Source: Hormiphora californensis
Lineage: Eukaryota > Animalia > Ctenophora
DNA: 26,997 nt
Assembly: GCA_020137815.1 (NCBI GenBank)
Contig: WFME01000021.1
Location: 1-26,997 of the forward strand
Direction of reading: 5' to 3'
The notes below the pieces were generated by a model that was not told the origin of the DNA, ran no database searches, and saw only the letters and a program-made list of their open reading frames with translations. The number at the start of each line of letters is the position of its first letter. Within the stretch, counting starts at the first letter, position 1. The translations under genes and the position numbers were made by a program. Positions 3,001 to 26,997 of the stretch are shown in pieces.

Positions 3001-3629
3001 GACCGAAAGAATTCAGTCAAGTCGAGGACCTTGGTTAACTTAAAAACACTTCGATAGGTCTAATGTTCATATGCTGAATGATGTTCAGTTTGTCATAAAG
3101 ATAGAATTATAGATGCTATGTATTCACCATCATGATCAAAAGATCACGTACCTTTTCTCGCAGACTACATAAAGGCGCAGCGGTGCATGCTATTTAGTTT
3201 TATACCCCGCGTGTGCAAGGAGGCCGAGAAAGTGAAAGGTGCCTTGAATTTTATCGTTTGTCGATTGAATTTTACCCTAGTTTTCTCCATTTACAAATTG
3301 TTTCTTGCTTCGAACAAGTTGTTATTTTCTAACCCTCCTCGCGAAAAGGGGGTCGAGCTAGGCAACGAACAAGTAGGCTGTTACAGTAGGACTAGGCCTG
3401 TTCGGAAATTGATCTTTCTGGTCAGTGGTCATTAGACCAGACTTCGTTTTCGCGAGTTTGGACAGGTTGGGCGACATGAGACAGAATTAGGCGTAGGCTG
3501 AAACTGAAATCAGCCGGAATTTCTGAAATCAGACGGAACTTCTGAAAGCAAACACGTGTCAATGACTTTTGACTTCATCTGAAACGTCCAGACGTCTTCT
3601 AGGGCAAATCGTCCAGACGTCTTCTAGAC
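54..3629 (+). repeat. Left arm of ~7.2 kb fold-back palindrome
   Basis: Reverse complement of 3646-7275 throughout, e.g. GACGTCATTATATGTAAGGGAGAAAAAATTCTGG at 54 vs CCAGAATTTTTCTCCCTTAACATATAATGACGTC ending 7275; 16-nt spacer 3630-3645. Confidence 0.97.
1031..1396 (+). mobile_element. Degenerate 3' fragment of a LINE-ORF1-bearing retroelement, same family as 25448-26315 (mirrored at ~5930-6295)
   Basis: Encodes PDR...ERVERRTL, matching SDRTVEERVERRTL of the 25802-26332 ORF; followed by a conserved 3' region (CTCGTTACGCCAC...TGAACCCTC) also found inverted at ~25530-25670. Confidence 0.6.
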
Positions 3630-3645
3630 ATGAATGTAGGAATCC

Positions 3646-6600
3646 GTCTAGAAGACGTTTGGACGATTTGCCCTAGAAGGACGTCTGGACGTTTTCAGAT
3701 GCAAGTCAAAAGTCATGACACGTGTTTGACTTTCCAGAAGTTCCGTCTGATTTCAGAAATATTCCGGCTTGAATTTCAGTTTTCAGACCTACGGGCCTAA
3801 TTTCTGTCTCCATGTAGTCGCCCAACCTGTCCAAACTCGCGAAAACGAAGTCTGGTCTAATGACCACTGACCAGAAAGATCAATTTCCGAACAGGCCTAG
3901 TCCTACTGTAACAGCCTACTTGTTCGTTGCCTAGCTCGACCCCCTTTCGCGAGGGGGTAGAAAATAACAACTTGTTCGGAAGCAAGAAACAATTTGTAAA
4001 ATGAGAAAAAGAAAACAGGGTAAAATTCCAAAATAGTACAAACGATTAAAATCGTGCAGCCTTCACTCTCGGCCCCTCCGCCACACCGCGGGTGATTTTC
4101 AAAAACTAAAAATAGATGCACCGCCTGCGACCATTATGTATGGTCTGCGAGAGAAAATAGGTACGTGATCTGTTGATCTGATGGGAAAATACATGCATCT
4201 TAATTCTTCTTATGAAAAACTAGAACAATCATTTCAGCATATGGACAGTTAGACATCATCGAAGTGTTTTTAAGTAACCAAGGTCTCGACTGACATGAGA
4301 TTCTCTTCGGCGAGTAGGTAATTAAGTCGTGGACACTCTAGAATGACACTCGGATGACACTTCAATCAACACACTGCATTCTTTTGGAGTGTTCAGTGCA
4401 GTAGTCGAGCGGTAAACCCGGCCTTCTCCTCCCGACTTCTGAGTCTCTGTCCGACCGCAGACTTTGTTTCAATCATCTCAGATATGAAACTGACGATTTC
4501 CGATCCTAGCGATGTAAATCACCACATGACAACCGAATTTAGGGGCATCGAGAGTTCCATGCGAATCGTTTAACGCTAGGAAGAAATTGGATAAAATATC
4601 CCTCATCAATGAAATTTACAAAGAAATACCCACGTGAAAGGGAGTGTTATAGGCGCATGCACCGTCAGAAGATGATCTGATGGTGGCGCTTCCCTTTTTA
4701 TTAGCTTGGATCTTGCGTTTCCACGAGTCCGCGGAGTGACAAGAAGATACGCAATTGCCAACTCCTATTGTTAGGGATCCCGAGTGGCATAACACGCCGC
4801 ATAATGAATGTAGACAGCAGTTTTATCAAAACTGAAACTGGAATTATTCATGTCGGTAGTAGGGTAGAGCAAGCCCTGTCATATTGTTGTACTTTAAACT
4901 GTTCACCGGTGCGAAGGAAAACAAAAGGATGCCCGATTTGAAATATGGCGTAACAATACCACACCACTAAAATCAGTTTCTCGCGGATCATGAATAAGCG
5001 GTGTACTGGGTGCACAGCCCGGGTACAACTAATGACCTGACAAGGAAGTAGGAAAGCTGAGAAAGCGACCTTTAGTATCATCGCCATACACATCATTACA
5101 TATCCATCCAATGTCCAGCAAACACTCCACTTGGAAAAGTCAGAAAAAAGATGATATTGCTGATAACACTGATTATGAAAACAAATCAGGGGAATCAGGG
5201 CGAGGCTTAACCAGAGGTTAAATTAGTCCGGGAGTTGCTCGTCTCACAGGCCAGGAGGTCTGATATAGGAAACAGAGAAAGTTGAGGGAGTGTTGTTCCT
5301 ACCAGAAGATGGATGTATAAAATATGTTATCGAATCTGGTCCATTGTTTAGCTAGCGTGATGTATGAGTGAATTCAGTAGTCGCTGTGCTGCATTGCCAT
5401 AACACCGTTCTAAATGGTGATGAAATTATTGGGATTAAATTCTCAATATATATAAAATTCGCTCTCTCTACAACAATATCTTTGTCTCGACTGGCTCCTT
5501 TCCCACGAGAACACTGCATGCAGTAATGGGTCACAAACAGGCTTAACTATGCGAGCTGCCTATCGATTTGGTGATCATAATCAAGGACGCATAATATGGC
5601 GCGTTTTTATAAGTTGCAATTGCAATCAGAACACTTTAGGAAAGACAAAACAACAATCCACTATCACGTTCTGGGATCCCTCATACATTGTCATATAACA
5701 ACTTCTTTGAAGGGAACTCTCTTATAAGATTTAATCAATCGATTGCATCGCTTGTCACGTAGTTGATGAGCACAGAACTTTCAAAAAAATATGACATTCG
5801 AATGTAATTCTTCTGTGGTGGCACACAGCCCATGATAAGCCACCGTTTTGTTTCCTGGGTAATATGATTGGATGAAGACCGGGTTTTACCAGAGCTGTGT
5901 TGACTGAATGAATCTAAATGAAGGAAAATGAACCACGTAGCGGGGAACTGAAGGCCTCAGAGGAGGGTCAGGTGGCGTAACGAGGTCAGCTGCACTGAGG
6001 ACTTACTAAAAGTGTGCATTGAGTCTGTTACCCCCACCGTGAAGGCCCCACCGTGTGTTCTTATAACGCGTTCAAAATCTACAAATTACAATAACTCAGT
6101 TTACCCCCTCTTAACTGGAATCTCCCTCATCAGAATCACTCTCTCATCATGACTATACTATAGATGAGAGCCAGAGAAGTGCATGGGCTATTCTAATTGT
6201 ATAGCAATAGCCCACTTGGCCCTGATCCTCTCCCCTGATCCGCTCCCCCTCTCTTCCACATGTTCTCCTTCAAACCCTCTCCTGATCCTATCAGGATGTA
6301 ACCTAGCGACTGATTGATGGAAAGTTGTTTCAGATGTGCGGCCCCCGATAGTATTGTAGCTGGATAAATTTGATGAATACCTATTATATCTGCAGATATA
6401 TTCCGCAGAAGCCTACCTCAGAACAACCTGAACCAGCCTCGAAGAGAAGAACAACAGCAAACAAAAACCAATGACAACAAACCAAGTCGGGACCAACGGG
6501 ATGTTGATTTGTCGTCTAAATGATAAAGGTTGATATGGTCTGCAAAATAATATTTCAATTTTCAAGGTAAATTGGTTAACCAAGCTGCAATACATGCATG

Positions 6601-12014: not shown

Positions 12015-13236
12015 AAACTTCTCTTTCCGGGTCTACTGTGTGTGGCTTCCAGGCGCTGTCTGCAGCTGTACTCTATTTGTGTCCACACAGAGTTATATTG
12101 TGTACTATGAGCGGCAGAACACTATATAGGAGTCTTGTTTGGAGGTCTTCTCGTACCGTCTTTTGAGAGAACTTCTCCGTACCGTACCTTTTGAGAGAGA
12201 CCCTCTCTCCTTTGTTTTTATGTTCTTTTGTCAACGGATTCAGGATGATGTAGAAAGCTGCTATTTTTCAAAAACTGAAACCTTATATTTTGGCATACAC
12301 AGCAGTCGCTTGCCTTGCTCGACCCTGATTCACAACCAGTCGAACGTTTGCCTACTTTTTCCTACCGTCAATATCGTATGACGTAGTAATCGTTGCTCAC
12401 CATGTTTTCTCTCAATATCAAGTTGGTGTGTTTCGATCTGAATGTCTTCGTTTTACCTCGATAACGGTGACGGTAATCCCGGACCAGATTGGCCTCAACA
12501 CCGCGAGGAGGACAATAAGACCTTTGGGAAACGGTACAGGATCATCGCTCTGCTTCCATTTTGCTAGCTGTGCAGTACTGTGGCTGAAACTTTATCAGAG
12601 ATAAACTATCTCTCATGTTGTTGGCTGATAATGTCAGAGCATTGTTCTCATCCTATTCTCATTCCTTTCAAGCGGTCAGAGCATTGGCCTGACAGCTATG
12701 AGTGGATAGCCTCTTGGCGCTGACCGTATGGTGGGCGCTGAGTGCTGACGCATTTACACCATTATTGAAGCTAAATGTCGTGGCATTGTAGTGATTTATG
12801 TAGGGACTTTAGAGATTATAATAGCACCCTGATTGGTTCAAGTTACAGTTTTTGCATGTGGTTGATATTTTCTGGAGTTGATCGAATTATTCCTTCGAAC
12901 TCCTTTATAATTCAACCTCAAAGATATTTGAGGTGGGGTTACCATATCCATGACGCCCGGGCTGTTCTTTTGACTTCAGATTTTATGCTCCCCCTCAAAG
13001 GCCATTATTTTCCATCTCGAATGGAATATGCAGGGCGACTGGTCCAGATTAATTAGGATCTCAATAGCAGAATAGTATCATGCAGGGTCTAGGAAGTAAT
13101 CAGTCAATGTGCTGCTCTGTCTTCTTTTGACTTGTAGACTCTATATCTAGTGAGTAGTGAGCCTCACTCTAGTAGTATAGTGTGGACAGTTGGGACCCCT
13201 TTTTTGCTCGAGTTTGTGGCTACCATATATGGGCAT

Positions 13237-13265
13237 GTCACGTGACCCCACGGTTACCTAGCAAC
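13237..13265. promoter_or_regulatory. Palindromic E-box GTCACGTGAC plus RFX X-box-like GTTACCTAGCAAC
   Basis: Motif match only (13237-13246; 13253-13265); a similar CCCACGGTTACC-AGCAA occurs at ~10826. Confidence 0.35.
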
Positions 13266-13321
13266 AACCCTACCGTCGTGGCACCTAGCAGCAACCCTAA
13301 CCCTAATGTGTAGCCAAGTGA

Positions 13322-13652
13322 TAACCCTAGATTAGGTCATAGCGCTGACAAGGGCCACAGTGCAGTAACCTTAAATTGAAATGACTCTACACGATAACAT
13401 ACCTCCTAATCACTTTCCATATCCTTAATTTTGTACAAGTAACATCAATATTACTCCCGTGGTGTAGTGCTAACCCTAGATTAGGTCATAGCGCTGACAA
13501 GGGCCACAGTGTAGTAACCTTAAATTGAAATGACTCTACACGATAAAATACTCCTAATCACTTTCCATATCCCTAATTTTGTACAAGTAACATCAGCATT
13601 ACTCTCGTGGTGTAGTGCACCCTAGATTACGTCATAGCGCTGACAAGGGCCA
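13322..13652. repeat. 149-bp subterminal tandem repeat, ~2.2 copies
   Basis: TAACCCTAGATTAGGTCATAGCGCTGACAAGGGCCA starts at 13322 and 13471; partial third copy ~13618-13652; mirrored at 26761-26976. Confidence 0.95.
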
Positions 13653-14102
13653 GCTCAAACTCTACATATTTTCTTACCTTCTGACCCTCATTACTTGTCC
13701 CTGTTGAGCCATCATAAAACTAGGTTCACACCTTTGAGACAAACAACCCTGTTGTCCCTTTAAATAAAAATACAGTACACTGTTTATTCAAATTGGACAT
13801 TACCAAATCGAGAATGTGCATCACAAGATTTAAGATTCAGTAGTCAGTACAGAGTAGTTCTTTCGATGGTTTCTTGCCTGAAGAATCAACACTCAACAGC
13901 TTTCTTATTGGAAGTTGCAGGTTTTTGGGCGGCAGGTTTTGGTGACAACCACAAGATTCTTTCCGGATGTTTTACCCTTTACTGAAGACACCTGCATCTT
14001 CGTAGCTGGATTTACAGGTTTTTTTTTACCGGGGCCGCTACAGTTTGCGTTTTTTTTCTGGCCGGAACAAGAGATTTACTTTTGGTAGATGGAGTTGAAG
14101 CT
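13441..14102 (+). repeat. Long inverted repeat, left copy (candidate TIR portion)
   Basis: Reverse complement of 26312-26976; I see only about four small indels and no substitutions. Confidence 0.95.
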
Positions 14103-14505
14103 TCTCCACCAGACGCTGATACCGTTCAACTGGCTTCTAACCAGATGAGCTTGGTGCCGGTCTTTTCCGCTGTCCTTTAGAACCAGATGCCGCCTCTGAT
14201 ACTTGAACTGACTCAAACAAGGTTCTCGAGCCTTGAGCCACCATAAAGCCAGGAATTTCAAACGGGTCTCCACCTTGGAGATAAAGAAACCTGTTGTATC
14301 TTTGATATCCTTGATATGAGTAGGCCATGACTGCACCTAGTAGCTGAATTTGCAGATTTTTAGCCAGTGCTGATGGCCCGGGCTGATTTTCACCGCTGTA
14401 GGATTTCTGGATGGAAAGATATTTTTAAATGTTGATAAACCAGAAGCAGTCTTGAACCATCATAAAACCAGCGCTTTGGTTTCCACCTTCGAGATAAAGC
14501 ACTGC
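13886..14505 (-). pseudogene. Frameshifted remnant of a small K/P/S/A-rich basic protein gene
   Basis: Pieces across frames: SASGGEASTPSTKSKSLVPARKKTQTVAAPVKK / PVNPATKMQVSSVKGKTSGK / SPKPAAQKPATSNKKAVEC*; duplicated upstream motif FISKVET at ~14265 and ~14480; AATAAA on minus strand at ~13783. Confidence 0.35.
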
Positions 14506-15192: not shown

Positions 15193-18100
15193 TTAAATAT
15201 CGAGATATGTTGTTCTGAGTCCATCCTCCAGAACCTTTCTTTTGACATAGATATGATTAAGTCCCGACTTTTTCACAGCGTATGTGTGCATACTCCCTTC
15301 TTTCATCCTGAAACCCATGTTTGTCTGTTGGTTGACAGGTTTCTTCAGTAACACAGCTCTGTAGTCTTCGAACGTAAGTTTATTGGTGTGAGACACTCCC
15401 TTCGAGCTGTACTTCGGATCAGGTCCAGAACAAAAGTAAGTCTTTGCGTTGAGACCGATGAATCCGTCACCGGACCACTCCACTTTGAACAGGCCTATGA
15501 AATGTCAAATATTACTTACTCCAGATCATTTGAAACTCATGACACATCTTGGAAGAAAAATGAAAGATAAGAGATCGAATACCTGGAGTACGCTTGTCAT
15601 AAGCTTTGTGGGTCGCTCTTGGAAAATACTGCTTCTTTACAACGTCCCACTCGTCTTCCATCCCTTCTTTGACAAGCTCGTCCAGTGAGTCTCCGGATAA
15701 AGCCAGGTATAAACTATCTAAAAATTTCATGGATTTGAGTATTCAATATTCACGGATATTTTAACTAAAATATTGGCTTTAAGGGAGACATCACTACCTC
15801 CTGAAACTGTTCAAACTTCGTTTAGGATACTTCCTCAAGCAAAGGGGTGTGTTCATGCAGAATTTCATATTTTTGGCTTATCGGGTAGTTACAGTTCCCA
15901 CCACTTCCAAAAACGTGCACTCATGGCACTCTATGCTAGAAGTTGTTTTTGTTGTTGCGGCGACGCAGCTGAAAATTGATTGGGGCTTGAACCGCAACTA
16001 GACGAAAATTCCCGCCCTGTATTGAAAGTAGACACGGCCCGGCGGGCATTGTAAGAAACATTATCGTACACTAGCGTGGGAAAAAGTTTGTATGCTAGTC
16101 CAAAATCACGTGATAGTCCTAATTTCCAGACTACTCAACTTTAACAGCAAAAAAAAAACAGGTGAGTGATTCTAAGTCAAAAATCGCCTACAAATCTAAA
16201 CTTACCCGTATCCATCTCAAGAAGACAGAAATCCTTCCTGTCAATAAAACGATCTATTACTTCATAATAGAAAACCAGCATCTTCAACCTAAAATGAAAT
16301 AGGTTTATACATATTTTTTGAGAAATAAAAAGCAGAAACCTAGATACAGAAATCATGTAGAATTCTGTCATTGGAGTAAAATGGCGTACTGTCATTGGAG
16401 CATTCGCAGGACACATACGGGACAGTGGACACATACGGGGCACATTCAGGACACACGTTAAGTTATACTCTTGGACAGGGAAAAAAACTTACTTTGCATA
16501 CGCGTATACAAAGAAACCGAGATGTACTGGTAAATCGTATGTGACTCGTCGCTTCTTAGAAACAACCTAAGATGATCACAGAATTAGACAGAAATATGTG
16601 TTGTGGTAGCAGGAAAACCTGATGCATCATGAATGGAGCTTGAAAGGAAGACATCACCGCTTCCTGAAACTGTCCAAACTTCTTTTAGGATACTCAAGTT
16701 GATACAGAATTTAATATAGAATTTAATACAGAATTTAATTTCAGGCATGCAGCAGTGTTCAATATGACCTAAATATGACCCATAGCGATTTTGAGCGTCT
16801 TCTTCCGGTCATTTCGAGCACCAATAAGCTATACTTTCTCCAAAAGATAAAGATAGACATTTTTTTTTGTTACAAGATATTTGCTGGCTTTAGGAGACCT
16901 CAAAAAATCCAAAAACCTAAAATTTCGATTTGAGTGCTCAAAATCGCTATGGGTTATATTTAGGTTTGCCTAGCTAGACTGTGTTTCGTGTGCCCCACCC
17001 GCGACCTTCGCCTGGTCAGGTTCATGCTAGCTGATACAAGGCTGAGAGTGAGAGTTGATAACTGTCTGTCTGAGGAGTTTAACGTTTCCATCGGAGCTTT
17101 TCAGGGAGATAGTCTGTCTGGAAATCTCTTTACTTTATACCTTGCGGGAGCCCTCAATCACCTACGCTCCATAACATCAACTACCCGACCAAACCCACCA
17201 ATACAAGAAAACCTACTCCCAGTAGAGTGGGAATATGCAGACGATGTAGATTTCATCGACGAATCTGTTGATAACCTGACAGCCATGTTACCTATCTGCC
17301 AGGAGATTTTAGAGGAGTGGAATCTTCACGTCAACGAGACTAAAACCGAGCACGTTCATGTATATCTTGCCAGCAAAGATGAGGTCGATCACAAGGGCGA
17401 GCCTGTGAAAGACCGAGAACCATGGAGAAATTGTATCTCACTTGACTCTAAACTTGGATGCAAGGAGGACATTGAACGACGTTGCAACCTATCAAACCTT
17501 GTTTTTAGGAAATACAAAGCAGTCTGGGAACAAGGGCCTAGGATCTCCCTTGCCACTAGGCTAAAAATATACGAGGCGCAAGTGGTTTCGGTGTTGATGT
17601 ACAACTGCAGCAGTTGGGCAGCACCTAAAAAGACATTGCACTCACTTGATGTATGTCATAGGAAGCACCTTCGGAACATCCTTAACATCCGGTTTCCTAT
17701 TTGTATCTCCAACAAAACACTGTACAAAAGGTGCAATCCGGGCACAGTGGAAAATGTTTGGTCATATTCTTAGGAGCCAGACCAACGCCCCTGCTATGAT
17801 GGCTCTTAAATTCGCTGTATCATGTGATATGAGGGGTAGACGAGGGAGGCACCAAACAAACCTCTTATCAGTACTTAAATGTGACCTCAAGGATAGGGGT
17901 TTTGATATTATGCATTATTTTGATGCGGTTATGGAGGCTGCGAGAGACAGAGTTGGGTGGAGAAGTATGAGTGTCACTCATCAGTTTTTTTAGGAGCTAT
18001 ATTTTATATGCCATATCAAAACTGCACGAGTTCTATAATAATAATAATAATACATAATAAAGGAGGGTCACTGCGCTGGTAAGTGCAAGCTGTAATTTAG

Positions 18101-21100
18101 TAATGAGACCAGGCTGGGCCCGAGAGACAGTTCAGTGGTAACTGGGGGGGGGGTCATGTGTGATGGAAATGAGAACTAGAGACAGATTTGAGTTGCATTT
18201 TATTGAGGAAAATAGCCCTTTTTGGTGTCTGAGACAAGCAAAAGTGAAACGAAATGCAACGTAACGAACGAGTAATCCACTTCTGTGGTGCTAGAGGTTG
18301 TTTTTTTGTTATTGTTCCAGCGGACGCAGCCAAAAATTAGATGTCCTATATAGAAATTAAGCTGGGTGGTGGTTACTGGTTATGAGCAACGCTATCGTGG
18401 GAAAAGCATGTATACTAGTACAAAATCACATGATTGTCCTAATGACACCCTTTTAAATGAACTGTAGACTGTAAACTATAGACTGACATACCTCAAAGGT
18501 GTCCTCCTCTAGCTCATCGAAACTAATCAGTAATGGGTCGTTGACCATTTTGCTGGCTCTCTCGATGTCTGCTAGCCGGACAGTAGTGTGACGATCCTTC
18601 CTCATGATAGAATGTCCGTAGACACTATTCCCTATGAGCTTGGAAGTCTCAGCTATGATGGACTTATTAGGATCCTTATCTCCTGAAGAAAAAAAATTTC
18701 TTGCACCTAAGCTGAGTTTGGTTCTGCTATAGTGCGTTATCTTCAAATTATGACTCCAGGAATCCAATTTTCTTACCAGCTCGACGATCATCTGACACAT
18801 TCTGAGCGAATCTGGCGAAGCACTTGACTGGATTGAACTGAACAAATTGGTAGACATTTGTCACGACAAGTCCATTATCCAGGTACCACTTTAGCAAAGG
18901 AGTGATCAACAGAATTTTCTCGGCAAACATGGAACCTATCAGGTTTCGACGATCTTTGAAAGTTTCCCCTGTCTCCTTTAGAAAGGCAGTCATGTACTCT
19001 CCAATGTCCTCGCTACTAATCGTAGCGTTCTTGAAGAGAGGAGTCATTTCACCAAACCTGGTAAATTATTGTGATCAGCGGATCATTACCATTGAACGTA
19101 ATTTGTTCAGTTAGTCTTAGTCGGACTCATAGTCTTTTTTACCTTTGTTTGAGATGATTAGGCACATGTATGTCGACCTCGGCAACGCCGAAAATTTCAC
19201 CACTCTGAACAGATTCCAAAATTTGTGTTTCTGTCAACCGGTACGAGTCTTCAAGAGGGTAGTGATACTTCTTTATTACCTGAAGAGACTTCCTTGTCTC
19301 CCGCCACTCGCATTCCCACATTTCCACCACCTAGGAGAGACTATACATTATTGCGATTTACAGATTACAAAATTTCATCAGACTTGTCGAAATTCTTAAA
19401 CCCTTTGAGGCCCATAGTGATTGGCTGAACGAAATTTTCTAATTTTTCCCAGATATACCCAGCATGATACTCTAAGATTAGGGGAAAAATAGTTTTTCAA
19501 ATCGGTTCATTACTTTTTCAGATACAGCATGGGTCATATATGACCCTCTGGGTCGTTTGGGAAGTTAAGAATTTCAAGCGGCCTAGGGTCCTCCATATGC
19601 CTTCCAAGCCTCAAAAGCTGGTTAGTCAGTGCCCTAGAGATGAAACGAGTTGACAGGAACCGTTACATGAACTTAATTGACTGAATTCTCTAATAAGGGG
19701 TAGGTTTCAGGTCATATGACCCTCTGGGTTGTTCATTGCACATCACCTCACATGTGTAATTCAGGCTTTAGACGCTGTTTATGATCAAATAAGATGCCAA
19801 GCCCGCAGTCATAACCCTATATTCAAATAATACTGACCTCAAAGCCAAGCGAACGGATTTCAGAGTTGATATCTTGAGTCTTTTTGAACCTGGAATCATG
19901 ACTTTTCCAGCCAGATTTTTCAACATCACGATCTTCTTGGAAACACTCGGGGCAGCCATGATACCAACAGCCGTGGAACTGGAAGACCGTCTTGGACTTT
20001 CTGAAAATAGTAGATAAAGTGTATAAGTGATAGTTTTACAGTCTGTATTCAATCCTGTAGTTAATTACCGATGAAAACCGTCTACTGGTATTTTCTTTGG
20101 ACCAAGTCTAACTTCTCCGCTGTTCCTAGCATGCTGGATATCAATCCCACGCTGATCCTCAACCCAACCCAGCCATTCACATGATACTTTTGAGGTAGCG
20201 GTGGGGTACTCTAATATGTAGTCTGGGGCACGCCTTCGTAAAAAAATCCCACATGGCATTTCTCTCCCCATACATTCTGTTGGAAACATGTTTTACAGTA
20301 CCATAATTAATTCAGTGTATATGATACATTTGAGCACAGTCGAATAATATAGGTTATACATAGTTCACTTCTGGATTAGTAATAATTATACATGCTGTAT
20401 TATAGTATACCAAACTTCTTACCCAAGTACAGGGCGTTGGCGTCGAAACCGACTACCTTCTTACACAGCTTTCCTTCCGCGTTATGACGGATTTTCGTAA
20501 CACCTAAATAATATTCTTGCTTAAAATATCTTATAATAATTAATAGTAATTAACAAAAATGGATAAATAAAAATAAATATTTATAAAGTAAATAAGCGAA
20601 TATAAGTAAATAATTATATAAATAATTAAGCAAATAAGTAAATGAGCGAATAAGTATAAAAAATAGATAATTAAATAAATCAATACACATATATACAGTC
20701 GGACCCCGATTTAGTGGCATCCTCGGGGGAAAAAATCCTGCCACTAAATAGGGGTGCCACTGAATCGGGTTCAAATAATGTTAATTTTCGTATATCGGGG
20801 AAAAAAATCCTGCCACTAAATCGGGGTGCCACTAAATCGGGGGCCACTAAATCGGGGTCCGACTGTATAAGTAAATAAGTAGAAAAGTTAATACGGAAAT
20901 AAGCAATTTTATAATAAGCAAATAAGCAATTTTATAAAGAGTAAATATGAGAAGAAAAATTAAATAAGTAATAAATAAAATGTTTTGCAATAAAATGTAC
21001 TACAATAACCTGCTTCTGCGTAACGGTCATAGATAATCGCTGGACCGCCAACGTTGTTGGACAGGAACAGTTGCACTAGATCTTTGTTTTTACCATTGAA

Positions 21101-23812
21101 GAGGTGGAACGTCTCATCGCGGTTGTTTAGCCCCTTGAATGCTATCCGTTCTGCGATTCCAGGAACTGCGAAAAAATTACATCAACGTAGCTGGCTCTTT
21201 CCGAGTCAATATCTTATAAATTATGACTCGTTGTCAATACTAATTTTTTACGGTTCTTAAAAAAAAGGTTTGTGATTTAGTATCAATACCTGACAATGCG
21301 TCCTTGAATACGTCCACTCCTCTGTCCTTGTAGTACTGAACCAAGTTCTCGATCGCCTCGAGGAAGGATGTAACATCGAGGTTGTTATAAAACTTTAGAT
21401 AGTCTCCAATGCACCAGTTTTTCTGTTCGAACATGGTCTTCAAGTTCTCATATCGTAGACTTCCTACTTTCTTTACTTCGAATGGAATGAGGGGCTCTGC
21501 TTTTGTTGGCTGTCGACCAATGAACTCTACTTCCGCGCTGGATAACTCCTCCCCAAGAGCCGGTTCCAGCATGTTCTTCTGTTTGAGTGACGAGAAGAAG
21601 CTGCTGTACTCAGGGAACTCCTTGAGACCAAGCTTCTCGAAAGAGTCCAAAAACTCGTAGGGAAAGAAGGACTTTCTATCATTAGCTCCGTAGGCTTTAT
21701 TAAACTTATCGAGGGAGTAGCCAGGTGCAACATAATTCATGACATCCAGGAACTTTAGTTGATCTGTTGAGATAGTCATGTAGCTAGAACCCTTTTTTAT
21801 CATAAACTGGACCGAGTCTTCCTGAGCCAGAATTGGGAATAAGTGCTCTCTTAGAACGTTTATATCATATTTTGCTCCATTGAAGGCCAGAACGGGGAGC
21901 TGATTGACATAGTTCTTCCACCTTGTCAGAACCTTTTCATCCTCTATCTCATCAATGTTGTATTCCTCGTACAGCTCTCTTACCCTCACAGCAGCCTCAT
22001 CACTAATTTGCCGAAGATACTCCAGAAATTTGGTTACCAGATCTTTTTGTCCATCGGTTTTCTCGAGAATGAAGCATTTCGGACTTGTGTAACCAGGAAC
22101 ATTGGATGCGATGGATATCGAAACCAGATGATGTGTGTTTTCAAAGCTAGTTTTATCAGTCTTGGTAATGCTCACTTCCTTTGAGAGAAGACATTCAATA
22201 TCAAACACTGCACGGAAAGGGTAGGCGCGTAGATCATGTGGTACATTGACTCCTTGGTTCTCCAATTGATCGAAAATCGTTGGTTTCACACTGAAAGTTC
22301 CGCCAACATACTTCTCCCTGATGCTGATGTCACAAGTTTTAGTGTGCCGCTTGTAATGACCGTGGTGGTTGAAGAACTTATCACACTGGATACAACGGTA
22401 CGATGTGGAGTATTTTTCGAGGTCTCGAATAAAGCAAAAATGGTTCTGAAACAAGTTTATGTGCATGAGATTCTCTTCACTGATGGAACGCCAAACTGTC
22501 GAAGTTGATCTGTCTTCCTCTTGCTCATATACCACGATACCCACTTTGAAGAGCCTTGAGATGTCCTCTAGTTGATCGAGTGTTACGCCTGTGAAGTCCT
22601 TGGTCTTGATCGAGGCCATTTTACAGTACTCACGCACGAGCTTATTGGACTTATTTTCCAGTGACAGCGGGTCTGCACCCTGATGTAGTGCAAGGCATCT
22701 GAAAAAACACTTCTGGTCTTCGTAAGGTTTTCCAGTTTTTCTCGAGGTGACAAGAGAAATCAGCCCCTTATTTCGCAACAAATGGACAGGTAGGTCGACT
22801 CCGCCCCCAATGGCAGTCCCTCTCAAGCGAAACACGTAAAAGCTTAAATTCGTTACTTTTACAGCACTCCATTCTGTCGATGGTCGCCTAATAGCTTTAT
22901 CTAAATCAATCCCCTGTAACGAGTTGATGAAGCCCCTCTTATCCTCTGAGTTCTTTATCAAGATTGGAGTGTCGAGAAGGAGCTGATTGTTCTGGGAAGG
23001 ACGATAGTAAGCAAGTTCACCGGTTCTTCTGTGCTTCAAAATGACTCCCAAGGAAACCTTCACCTTGAACGCGTTATTTTGGTGTCTGTAAAGCTTTTTG
23101 AAGTTGTCTACAAGCTCATCAGTTGTTAGATTATCTACCTGAATATTGTAAACATCCATAATTCTACCAATTTTTACACTCGTTCTGATACCAGGGTGTT
23201 CTTTGTAGATGGTTTCAAATTCTGGTTCAATATGGAATTCTCGCATAGGAGAAGTAGGACTGGGCTGGGAATGGGAGAAACTGTGCTCAAGATTGATCAC
23301 ATGCTCTCTCTGGTGAGCCTCAAACTCTCTGCCAGGGATCTTACGCAAACAGACACTGCACTCCCTTTTACATTGTCTCCCTCCCTTATGCTTTTGTAGA
23401 TGAGTTCCCCGGACTGTATTTTGACACAATGGACAAGTAACCGCTCTGTTCTTTGTCTGAAGTAATGGAGAAACCTGTTAGTTATGGGAATTGTATTGAA
23501 TAATGAATCGAAGAATGGACCTTCGGTAGAACTTACATGGTGGAGAGAAGAAGGCCCAGGTTTTTCATCTTTTTCATCATCGTCCTGAAGGAAAACTCAC
23601 TTTAAATATGTAATGAAATTTATCTTACAATTAACATGAATAAATCCTACATAACAATACACTTAAATTAGTCTTTGGACAAAATATTCCTTTAGTGTTT
23701 TATCCAAACAGCGACATAATCTCACCTTTCGCTTCAAATTCAATAAGGCAGACAGTTGAGGTTGGACGAAGAAAACTCCCAGAAAGAAAAGAAGGTAGAT
23801 CCGACTCGCCAT
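15193..23812 (-). CDS. polB: Polinton-type protein-primed DNA polymerase B (pPolB), 14 exons, 1393 aa
   Basis: Exons (minus): 23812-23726, 23584-23537, 23474-21290, 21165-21010, 20503-20423, 20276-20069, 20000-19838, 19330-19143, 19057-18777, 18682-18492, 16566-16493, 16288-16206, 15717-15583, 15494-15193. All introns are GT-AG with compatible phases; total 4182 nt. Motifs: ExoI VFDIE, ExoII FNGAKYD, ExoIII YNNLD, VGGPAII, motif A GFDANALY, motif B KLIGNSVYG, motif C EMDT|DS, RTPGLFKVE, AKTY, SSKG. Exons 1-2 are less certain than exons 3-14. Confidence 0.92.
16767..16965. mobile_element. Small inverted-repeat element (MITE-like) in pPolB intron 10
   Basis: 30-bp IR with 1 mismatch: ACCTAAATATGACCCATAGCGATTTTGAGC (16767-16796) / GCTCAAAATCGCTATGGGTTATATTTAGGT (16936-16965); TSD not identified. 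Confidence 0.65.
16988..18060 (+). mobile_element. 5'-truncated non-LTR retrotransposon (RTE-like reverse transcriptase), antisense in pPolB intron 10
   Basis: GAFQGDSLSGNLFTLYL, EYADD, LHVNETKT, RLKIYEAQVVSVLMYNCSSW; frameshift near 17740 into WKMFGHILR..RGRRGR; (TAA)n-like tail 18035-18060. Confidence 0.92.
19143..20276 (-). CDS. polB: pPolB exons 6-8: Vsr-like PD-(D/E)xK nuclease domain inserted after polymerase motif A
   Basis: Spliced peptide EWLGWVE..IQHARNSGEVRLG..VDGFHR|KSKTVFQFHGCWYHGCPECF..IRSLGFE|VVEMWECEW. Confidence 0.85.
20696..20865. mobile_element. Tc1/mariner-pogo-type MITE (170 bp) in pPolB intron 4
   Basis: TA|CAGTCGGACCCCGATTTAGTGGC ... GCCACTAAATCGGGGTCCGACTG|TA; 23-bp perfect TIR, TA target duplication, internal GCCACTAAATCGGGG repeats. 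Confidence 0.92.
21290..23474 (-). CDS. polB: pPolB exon 3: two Zn fingers, terminal-protein-like domain, vOTU-like protease, Zn finger, 3'-5' exonuclease
   Basis: Covers the 729-aa ORF; CPLC..H..C, CSVC..H..H; EDQKCFFRCLA (Cys) and NLFQNHFCFI (His); CIQC..H..C; DIE / NGAKYD / YNNLD. Confidence 0.92.
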
Positions 23813-24318
23813 CCTCAGATATTGTCGATTATACTAAGTCATTAAGAAGCTGTGTACGCCCACACTCGTGACTATCTAAAAGAATTAAGAAATTACACAC
23901 ATGTGAAAATACATGTATGATGTAAGCATCACGGATAGATGTCAAGACCAGTAAGACTAAAAGGACAAATAACATAAGTTCCGAAGCTGAACCTAGAAAC
24001 ATGTGCTAACAGGTCAAAAAAAAAAGAGAGTACAGTGAGTAACTGAGCTCCATGCACTGCAAAGTGCAAACTGGTATCTGTACATTTTTTGTTATTCATT
24101 ATAGTGCAAAGCAACGGAAATTTGGCACATAGCAACCGGAATTCAGGCTTTCAAGCAATATCAACTACAGCTTTAGTTTGAGCTGCATCAGTCACACATT
24201 GAACGCACGTATAAAGAGAGGTAACAAAAGCACTGGACCTGTAATTACCCCGGTACCATGTGGACACCTGTTGATATTCGCTAGCCAAATTAGGAATAAA
24301 CTGGGTCACATGATGTAG

Positions 24319-24322
<4 letters not shown>

Positions 24323-24369
<47 letters not shown>
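24323..24369. repeat. (AG)n microsatellite in the divergent intergenic region
   Basis: Direct reading. Confidence 0.97.
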
Positions 24370-24375
<6 letters not shown>

Positions 24376-24671
24376 TGTGGATAAGTTGAAGTCTGTAGAC
24401 ACTGCAGCTACAATCACTGCAGCTACATACAATTACTGCAGATCATATCGTATACGATCGTACATTTCTCTGGTGTATCTGTCGTAGCACGTCTGGCCAG
24501 GACGTAACGGACATTGAGGGTGAACTATTGAGGCTGAACGGGAGGAGAGGGATAGAGAGACGTATGGGTTCGATAAAAAAATTGGTGTTCTATAATCTTG
24601 ACTACTAATTGCGGGTAGCACATCGCGAGAATTTAAAATTACGCAATAGTTCAGCTAGGTCTCTCACTGAG

Positions 24672-24677
24672 TATAAA
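24672..24677 (+). promoter_or_regulatory. Candidate TATA box of ORF 24712-25146
   Basis: GTATAAATA about 40 nt upstream of the ATG. Confidence 0.5.
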
Positions 24678-24711
24678 TACAAGTGAGATTTAGAACTATT
24701 TCATTTCCATC

Positions 24712-25146
24712 ATGGATGATTTTCTGAAGAACGTAGCCGATTCAGTAAAACCGCTTTATCGAAAAAACTGGAAAACTATCAAGCAAAGTGTTAAGAAAGG
24801 GATTCTCAAGGATATGTATCATTTTCCAATCTCTCCTTATGATAGCATCCCAGGGAAGCTCGGTGGAGTACTGAAATATTACAAAAAACCTGTAAAAATC
24901 AATGCAGCTTTTGGATACATATTAAGGAACACTGAAACGGATGAATTGAAGTTTTACCATCCATCCAACAATACAATGGTATTTGAAACAGCTCAAGTCA
25001 TAACAAATCAAGACGATATAATGAAAGTAAAGAATGAAATCGAAAGAGATGATTTGATCGAAATAGCACGCGAATCAAGACATTCCTCGAAGTGGGTGGT
25101 TGAGACCATTGTTTGTATACGTTTTGATGTATACAGATATTCTTGA
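24712..25146 (+). CDS. 144-aa stand-alone paralog of the pPolB N-terminal (terminal-protein-like) domain
   Basis: Intact intronless ORF; colinear similarity to exon 3: IKQSVKKGILKDMY/IRTSVKIGRIMDVY; KINAAFGYILRNTETDELKFYHPSNN/KVKVSLGVILKHRRTGELAYYRPSQNN; RHSSKWVVETIVCIRFDVYR/RPSTEWSAVKVTNLSFYVFR. Confidence 0.85.
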   Translation: MDDFLKNVADSVKPLYRKNWKTIKQSVKKGILKDMYHFPISPYDSIPGKLGGVLKYYKKPVKINAAFGYILRNTETDELKFYHPSNNTMVFETAQVITNQDDIMKVKNEIERDDLIEIARESRHSSKWVVETIVCIRFDVYRYS

Positions 25147-25447: not shown

Positions 25448-26315
25448 TCAATCAATCAATCAATCAATCAAAGCTACCACGGTGGGTAGTGGCACTGAGC
25501 CGCAATTAAACATATAATATTATGAAAACTGAACCACACGGACCAAACTGGGTGAGGGTTCAGAGTGGCGTAACGAGACCAATTGCACGAAGTCGGGTAA
25601 GGACTTTTGTGTGCGTTGACCCCGTTACCCCACCCTGGCCCCCACCATGTCCTTACAAGAAACGGTTTTCAAACAACAAGGATGTGAATATATAATGATA
25701 TGATATCTGGAGAATGAAGAATGTTAAAATCTCTAAACTCACTCTCTCAGCTCTGACCTCTCACACATCATTCTCAGTTTTTTCATTTTCAGTCTCCACA
25801 ATTAACCCTCGTCTAATAGACCGAACTTTCTCTGGCTCAACTTCTCTTCTCTCTCTCTCAACTTAGCAACTAATGTTCTCCTCTCTACTCTCTCTTCTAC
25901 AGTCCTATCAGAGGCAATGAACACTGCCCGGTAAATCTCTGACTCTTTTAGCCGTGCTACCTTACCCAGGAGATCCCTGACACTCTCTCTGCTCCTCAGA
26001 ACCACCTTCACTGGCCGATAACCTCCCTCCCTGCTCCTTCCAAGCCTCTCAACCTTCGAAAGGACTGGTGCTTCCTCAAGATACTGGAACAGCTCTTTTA
26101 CCTTGTCACTTTCACTACTCCTCTCATCCTCACACAAGCCATATACAATCATATTACTGCTGCGGTCGGTTGATGCACTGGCAAAAGCAGACCGTATTTT
26201 ACTAGGGGCAAGGGCAGATGTGCATGCCTCATTCACTGCAGCAGCGGCTGTTTCGAGTACTGTTGAGTAGCTCTGAATCTCATTTTTGACGACTGTCTGA
26301 ACAGCATTTACAGCT
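25448..26315 (-). mobile_element. 5'-truncated retroelement carrying only a LINE ORF1-like (RRM-type) region, 3' UTR and (TGAT)n tail
   Basis: ORF 25802-26332: RSSNMIVYGLCE..VERLGR..RPVKVVL..VFIASDRTVEERVERRTLV, typical of CR1/L2-type ORF1; (ATCA)n at 25447-25470; no ORF2 between them. Confidence 0.8.
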
Positions 26316-26976
26316 TCAACTCCATCTACCAAAAGTAAATCTCTTGTTCCGGCCAGAAAAAAAACGCAAACTGTAGCGGCCCCGGTAAAAAAAACCTGTA
26401 AATCCAGCTACGAAGATGCAGGTGTCTTCAGTAAAGGGTAAAACATCCGGAAAGAATCTTGTGGTTGTCACCAAAACCTGCCGCCCAAAAACCTGCAACT
26501 TCCAATAAGAAAGCTGTTGAGTGTTGATTCTTCAGGCAAGAAACCATCGAAAGAACTACTCTGTACTGACTACTGAATCTTAAATCTTGTGATGCACATT
26601 CTCGATTTGGTAATGTCCAATTTGAATAAACAGTGTACTGTATTTTTATTTAAAGGGACAACAGGGTTGTTTGTCTCAAAGGTGTGAACCTAGTTTTATG
26701 ATGGCTCAACAGGGAACAAGTAATGAGGGTCAGAAGGTAAGAAAATATGTAGAGTTTGAGCTGGCCCTTGTCAGCGCTATGACGTAATCTAGGGTTAGCA
26801 CTACACCACGAGAGTAATGCTGATGTTACTTGTACAAAATTAGGGATATGGAAAGTGATTAGGAGGTATTTTATCGTGTAGAGTCATTTCAATTTAAGGT
26901 TACTACACTGTGGCCCTTGTCAGCGCTATGACCTAATCTAGGGTTAGCACTACACCACGGGAGTAATATTGATGTT
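26312..26976 (-). repeat. Long inverted repeat, right copy (candidate TIR portion)
   Basis: Reverse complement of 13441-14102; similarity stops at AGCT 26312 (junction with the ORF1 element) and at 26976. Confidence 0.95.
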
Positions 26977-26997
26977 CACAATAAGGTATGAATGTTA

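Follow-up and report, generated by a model that had tools for sequence, protein, structure and literature searches.

The closest described counterparts of the locus reported here are the polymerases of Polintons (pPolB), in which a fused terminal protein (TP) is predicted to prime via a loop hydroxyl and a vOTU protease is predicted to cut the TP off (10.1101/2024.03.18.585575). For the Polinton TP as well as its vOTU-mediated release, the basis is structure prediction (10.1101/2024.03.18.585575). The same work links PRD1-like TPs to LF/PAD, a DNA-binding fold, with the linking residue between alpha2 and beta4, and the separate TPs it describes, in adenovirids and in one coral polinton, are splits. 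In the accessible text of the literature, including PMC8502044, PMC8097293, PMC11957031 and 10.64898/2026.10.13.758929, no description was found of an element with both a free and a fused TP. The 26,997-nucleotide stretch analysed here (the window; Hormiphora californensis contig WFME01000021.1) combines a stand-alone TP gene with a polymerase that retains its own TP, and this is a real, conserved and apparently undescribed arrangement of the Polinton replication module. We put the probability that the free 144-aa paralog acts as a ready-made primer supplied in trans at about 0.5.

The stand-alone gene comprises the following features:

24712 to 25146, plus strand: stand-alone TP-like gene, 144 aa, intronless (BLASTP, shuffles, model and profiles)
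25087 to 25089, plus strand: codon of the predicted linking residue Ser126, in the alpha2-beta4 loop (model and alignment)
24672 to 24677, plus strand: TATAAA box, 40 nt 5' of the free-ORF ATG (consensus match only)

The free ORF is a TP-like domain homologous to the fused TP of pPolB. BLASTP aligned it with the 745-aa ORF at 21240-23477 (minus strand) at 35 identities in 128 residues (27%, E 5e-12), and the local score of 129 between the free and fused TPs compares with a mean of 36 and a maximum of 62 in 2000 shuffles. When a profile of the free family (44 rows) was compared with one of the fused N-terminal region (31 rows), 144 columns were aligned with a probability of 99.9% (E 2.4e-35). 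The fused segment that matches the free ORF lies at about 23246-22821, between a Zn-finger region and a vOTU-like domain, as the original prediction had proposed; its further statement that the ORF stops where the fused copy continues is likewise borne out, since the free protein (C-terminus FDVYRYS*) ends at the position of the Arg directly preceding GTAIGGG, within the TP-vOTU linker, which is where a TP set free by vOTU would be expected to terminate. Among terminated free proteins, 50 of 56 end 16-21 residues from the beta4 Trp and before the linker Gly, which is retained in 57 of the 67 fused forms.

Neither the free ORF nor exon 3 of the polymerase gene had a Pfam match above cut-off. 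A sequence search of the PDB returned nothing beyond weak bromodomain matches (E 0.008 or worse), and a bromodomain identity was dropped at that level. The TP-vOTU linker of the window had also been read as similar to a ubiquitin tail; this was abandoned because Arg and Gly occupy those positions in just 19 and 20 of 67 forms, so that the likeness is not general. TATA[AT]A occurs within 70 nt upstream of nine of the 14 free ORFs looked at (a count without shuffle control), and a sigma-70 scan, which has no relevance for a eukaryote, gave chance-level results. Run X1, whose RNA origin is a guess, yielded four contigs, three on pPolB exon 3, one short and elsewhere and none on the free ORF, which carries no weight either way.

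The neighbouring polymerase gene lies on the opposite strand:

15193 to 23812, minus strand: pPolB gene model with 14 exons, 13 GT-AG introns and an open frame of 4164 nt (homology for exons 3-14)
22821 to 23246, minus strand: fused TP (D1) domain of pPolB, in exon 3 (alignment, model and profiles)
22877 to 22875, minus strand: predicted linking Thr of the fused TP (alignment)
22420 to 22802, minus strand: vOTU-like protease domain, approximate bounds (sequence comparison)
22709 to 22707 and 22442 to 22440, minus strand: predicted vOTU catalytic Cys and His, both present (alignment)
23290 to 23456, minus strand: Zn-finger-like Cys/His region, N-terminal of the fused TP, approximate bounds (sequence and model)

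A protein-primed PolB, a Polinton hallmark, is thus present in the window. Its exons were placed from 23456 to 15193 by homology with related polymerases, and the 14-exon model has GT-AG at 13 of 13 introns, consistent phases and a single terminal stop. Exons 1 and 2 (23812-23726 and 23584-23537) are in frame and without homology support and form a putative gene start; with that qualification, the divergent orientation of the free ORF and pPolB stands as first described. The vOTU Cys is found in 31 of 31 rows and the His in 26 of 31, with four gaps, and both residues, together with the fused TP hydroxyl, are intact in the window and in a second locus, L016. Judged from sequence, the TP has been duplicated, as opposed to the published splits, because the polymerase keeps its own TP and the vOTU catalytic residues in both contigs.

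Several further observations concern the polymerase gene. The putative first exon (23812-23726, minus strand) is hydrophobic and signal-peptide-like, which is odd for a nuclear polymerase, and may not be the true exon 1. The 13 introns are of spliceosomal type, and the polymerase of L016 (144-3460) is split at several matching places, suggesting an intron-rich Polinton polymerase lineage; ten close pPolB homologs were called as ORFs of 680-741 aa that resemble exon 3. A 1925-nt pPolB intron carries a reverse-transcriptase fragment antisense to the gene (16964-17773, plus strand; Pfam RVT_1, E 5.6e-08). At 20692-20869, among AT-rich repeats in a pPolB intron, is a small element, likely a MITE, that has inverted ends of 27 nt and repeats inside.

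The model of the free protein (pLDDT 92) has the same order of helices and strands as the model of the fused domain and shows the four-stranded sheet and two helices of an LF/PAD-like fold. In a wide fold search, eight of the top 14 structural matches were Y-family LF/PAD domains (Z 4.6-5.3); a designed protein outranked them (Z 5.9), and the LF/PAD match is middling. The best BFVD match was an adintovirus protein (E 1.4e-4, TM 0.53), followed by weaker bidnavirus-like and MELD polymerase rows, with no adenovirus or PRD1 TP named in the best 50. Foldseek returned no PDB structure at E<=0.001, polymerase kappa ranking third, and the ESM Atlas held no usable match for the free protein.

Ser125 and Ser126 lie in the model within loop 123-127, between alpha2 and beta4. 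The predicted linking position, two residues before the beta4 Trp, is Ser or Thr in all 67 fused domains and in 52 of the 58 free ones; the preceding residue is Ser or Thr in 53 of the 58 free proteins, and all 58 have a hydroxyl at one position or the other. Five of the six exceptions at the linking position show deviations elsewhere in the core as well, compared with 13 of the 52 others (Fisher p=0.009, for core positions picked from the same free clade), while the protein of locus L004 is an exception without any other core deviation. The window copy reads RHSSKW, with a His before the serines, and is without the adjacent helix-breaking Pro that is present in 42 of 58 free and 64 of 67 fused domains. 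Homology, the LF/PAD-like model and the retained predicted linking Ser together agree with the initial identification of the ORF as a TP-like domain. Free-specific residues are His37, Cys135, Arg137 and Asp139, where fused domains mostly have Asn, Asn, Thr/Ser and Tyr/Phe; His37 is found in 54 of 58 free proteins (Asn in 62 of 67 fused) and Cys135 in 55 of 58 (Asn in 59 of 67 fused). The 144-aa protein has no large N- or C-terminal helical extensions: it ends with beta4, and its N-terminal helix is common to the fused domain.

These properties could also be those of a protein that does not prime and is not linked to DNA, but binds TIR DNA or fills the TP site of the polymerase, thereby protecting the ends, aiding origin opening or limiting replication. 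Such an end-binder or decoy would suit a DNA-binding fold, a basic protein (net charge +5, pI 9.2) free of polymerase-binding extensions, the near-fixed, clade-specific His37 and Cys135, and a linking position relaxed in six of 58 rows, including the otherwise undeviating L004. However, the fused TP is equally basic (net +6), and a decoy would not need the loop hydroxyl that all 58 rows keep at one of two adjacent positions. We regard this alternative as rather unlikely, and continue to favour a primer supplied in trans.

The core was covered by 186 of 243 domain hits, and 185 of these entered a tree. One clade of 58 contains the window free ORF together with every one of the 23 complete free ORFs from DNA, and excludes all 67 vOTU-fused domains. 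Its support is 100/98 in a thinned tree of 33 of the 58 free and 44 of the 67 fused domains plus the fused TP of L016, a tree for which the group had been taken over from the first one and whose bootstrap was not yet fully stable. The clade is set off by a long, strongly supported stem branch. The fused TP of the window falls in a different clade of nine (100/99), which includes that of L016. With the better tree, the AU test rejected a forced pairing of the two window domains (p=0.00013); with the quick tree it did not (p=0.056). The quick tree gave no rejection of an origin of the free clade from this polymerase lineage (p=0.85), an origin that is absent from the careful tree, the deep nodes being weakly separated. 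The best named relative of the free ORF is a protein of Pleurobrachia bachei, at 87% identity compared with 27% to its fused neighbour.

Start and stop are conserved among relatives of the free ORF. From 25 coding sequences and 300 pairs, the 30 closest pairs were used for dN/dS; these are non-independent, all among relatives, and the window ORF is in none. Values were 0.02-0.23 in 15 measurable pairs, 14 pairs were saturated, and one had a single nonsynonymous and zero synonymous changes, which supports purifying selection in the relatives of the window ORF. On the tree, the free ORF belongs to an old, conserved stand-alone clade and is not a recent local copy; of the earlier description as a copy of the polymerase domain, the homology is retained, and descent from the domain of this particular polymerase is not.

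The same data bear on whether the ORF is a recent partial duplication or a decaying, functionless fragment of the polymerase gene. Six short ORFs of fused-type sequence, all outside the free clade, show that broken or exon-limited TP pieces exist, and the quick-tree AU test left a pairing with the neighbour standing. Set against this are the far closer match to the P. bachei protein than to the neighbour, the rejection on the better tree, the conserved start and stop and the purifying selection in relatives. This reading is largely refuted by the sequence comparisons and is highly improbable.

A length-limited search returned 19 relatives of the free ORF, and an unfiltered one 636 at E<=0.001, with short and long sequences mixed among the 150 listed. 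The metagenome scan gave 47 loci, 26 of the free type (23 complete, one cut at the 5' end and two running off the contig) and 21 of the fused type. No relative was found in the viral contigs scanned or in phage records, and the single match in prokaryote genomes, a 725-nt contig end (L048), is likely misbinned. Two other proteins have a duplicated TP, as a pair of TP-like domains on a single chain: P0102, which has C2H2 arrays and in which no vOTU motif was seen, and P0104, where the tandem TPs stand ahead of vOTU. In L005, L015-L017, L020-L022, L024 and L026, the free TP gene is followed by a conserved ORF that is small and helical, by one that contains Cys, or by both; neither has Pfam matches.

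Both TP forms occur on a single contig twice, in the window and in L016, where the free gene is divergent from a TP-bearing pPolB with two other ORFs in between. In L019 and L036 the free gene lies in tandem 3' of the polymerase, on the same strand, with the polymerase N-terminus off the contig. Orientation is therefore not conserved, and because it varies among loci the bidirectional promoter that the original prediction placed at 23813-24711 is unsupported; the free ORF moreover has its own TATAAA. A polymerase is visible in three of the 26 free-clade loci, 0.2-3.4 kb from the free gene. Co-occurrence with a TP-bearing pPolB was seen in the window and L016, and none of the 21 fused-type loci shows a free copy; most of these are short, just five reach 8 kb, and three of the five look near-identical.

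In L015, L016, L017 and L020 the free gene stands in a row of accessory and integrase or ATPase genes, away from the polymerase. An rve integrase adjoins it in L004, L015 and L020, an A32-like ATPase is near it in L015 (weak Pfam match) and L020 (by similarity), and an adenovirus-type protease in L014. Such rows, together with the long stem branch, could potentially be explained by an accessory that has taken on a new function outside priming, for example as an adaptor of the integrase or packaging ATPase, or as a host-directed protein with a new His/Cys site; a 2026 preprint speculates, in its accessible text, on an adaptor between pPolB/TP and DDE integrases (10.64898/2026.10.13.758929). This role is distinctly unlikely. 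The priming loop is conserved, and the ORF is intact in the window element, where the search detected no gene for an integrase, ATPase, protease or capsid, although its persistence may be passive in a young copy. A role in priming remains our preferred reading.

The window element is bounded by two inverted arms:

13171 to 14102, strand not applicable: left arm of a likely terminal inverted repeat (TIR), matched over 13317-14102, with a possible terminus (AGTAGT) at 13171
26312 to 26997, strand not applicable: right arm of the inverted repeat, matched to 26976 and likely continuing beyond the window end

Polintons are recognised by long TIRs that end in AGT or AG repeats and by a 6-bp target site duplication. 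AGT-repeat termini are the Maverick terminus type (PMC8097293). Of the Polinton TIR, the window shows inverted arms that are 99.2% identical across 666 nt and the AGTAGT at 13171; the right terminus is beyond the window. Between the TIRs, no Polinton genes other than the free ORF and pPolB were detected. Probes from related loci (13) and tblastx against the 47 loci found no integrase, ATPase, protease or capsid gene in the window, a search in which intron-split genes could be missed, and because of this the element looks like a reduced Polinton of about 14 kb.

With two TP paralogs and two genome ends, the free protein might serve as a primer specific to one end, as had been suggested. This is very unlikely because the TIR arms are 99.2% identical, and the two ends would probably look alike to a primer, the extreme right end lying beyond the window.

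The arms and flanks contain other repeats. Both arms (13290-13652 and 26762-26976) carry a 149-nt tandem unit and telomere-like CCCTAA runs, and TAACCCTA occurs six times against 0.8 expected, an excess inflated by the repeats themselves. An ORF at 25802-26310 (minus strand) abuts the inner edge of the right arm; it has no Pfam match above cut-off and resembles a LINE ORF1 fragment. At the inner edge of the left arm, 14100-14500 (minus strand) holds two similar short coding-like segments without a Pfam match. The 7.2-kb region at 54-7275 matches its own reverse complement at about 83%, as a decayed long foldback would, and contains a perfect 131-nt inverted pair (3345-3475 and 3817-3947).

If the free protein primes in trans, the following steps may be envisaged. 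After the vOTU cut, the built-in primer of each polymerase would be spent, and further starts from the fused form would therefore call for another spliced protein of 1387 aa. Excess primer would come from the small intronless gene, with Ser126 accepting the first nucleotide at the TIR end in the manner of the separate TPs of adenoviruses and PRD1; His37, Cys135, Arg137 and Asp139 could form a remodelled surface that engages polymerase or DNA without a covalent tether. This scheme is consistent with the retained loop hydroxyl, the C-terminus in the linker, the LF/PAD-like fold and the low dN/dS, as well as with the proximity of polymerase in three of 26 loci and the pairing of free ORF and pPolB between the TIRs. 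Against it are a linking hydroxyl less strict than that of fused domains (52/58 versus 67/67), the Pro missing from the window copy, the lack of the long helical extensions suggested for polymerase binding in stand-alone TPs, and fixed beta1 and beta4 changes that could equally mark a new function. The four loci with the gene away from polymerase, the restriction of both forms to two contigs and the 21 fused-type loci without a free copy also count against it.

More tentatively, a lineage of animal Polintons may use a two-primer system, in which the vOTU-released built-in TP would serve the first start and the dedicated free TP gene later ones. The lineage could then represent a living intermediate toward the separate TP of adenoviruses, with duplication first and loss of the fused copy and vOTU activity later, and not a one-step fission.

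The analysis also gives a domain identity to a Polinton ORF family that recurs without annotation and for which Pfam yielded nothing above cut-off. A small, intronless, stand-alone TP beside its polymerase would be a convenient substrate for a first direct test of priming. Should it prime, it would explain how a one-primer polymerase starts many genome copies, and would illustrate a duplication route toward the adenovirus arrangement.

Among known systems, Y-family LF/PAD domains resemble the free protein in structure over about 87-98 residues (rmsd about 3-4.7), with middling Z scores tied with unrelated alpha/beta folds and 3-7% identity; they are non-priming and lie C-terminal to the polymerase. 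The window polymerase has the same order, TP-vOTU-EXO-PALM, as described for Polinton pPolB, and likewise the LF/PAD-like fold, alpha2-beta4 hydroxyl and vOTU Cys/His (10.1101/2024.03.18.585575). It differs from that description in adding a second, free TP gene, a duplicate not mentioned in the accessible text of that source, and its 13 introns contrast with the intronless intact vertebrate Mavericks (PMC8097293). Adenovirus pTP and PRD1 TP are, like the free protein, encoded by a separate gene, and share its predicted core fold and linking-loop position (10.1101/2024.03.18.585575). In those systems, however, the polymerase is without a TP and the adenovirus vOTU is inactivated, whereas the polymerases of the window and L016 keep the TP and the vOTU residues; their TPs also bear large helical extensions, suggested for polymerase binding (10.1101/2024.03.18.585575), whereas the free protein is a bare 144-aa domain. 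The polinton of the coral Stylophora resembles the window element in having a gene of its own for the TP while its pPolB carries an active vOTU (10.1101/2024.03.18.585575). By its description it is nevertheless set apart as a split, with a vOTU-pPolB as in adenovirids (10.1101/2024.03.18.585575), whereas the window element is a duplication in which the fused TP was retained.
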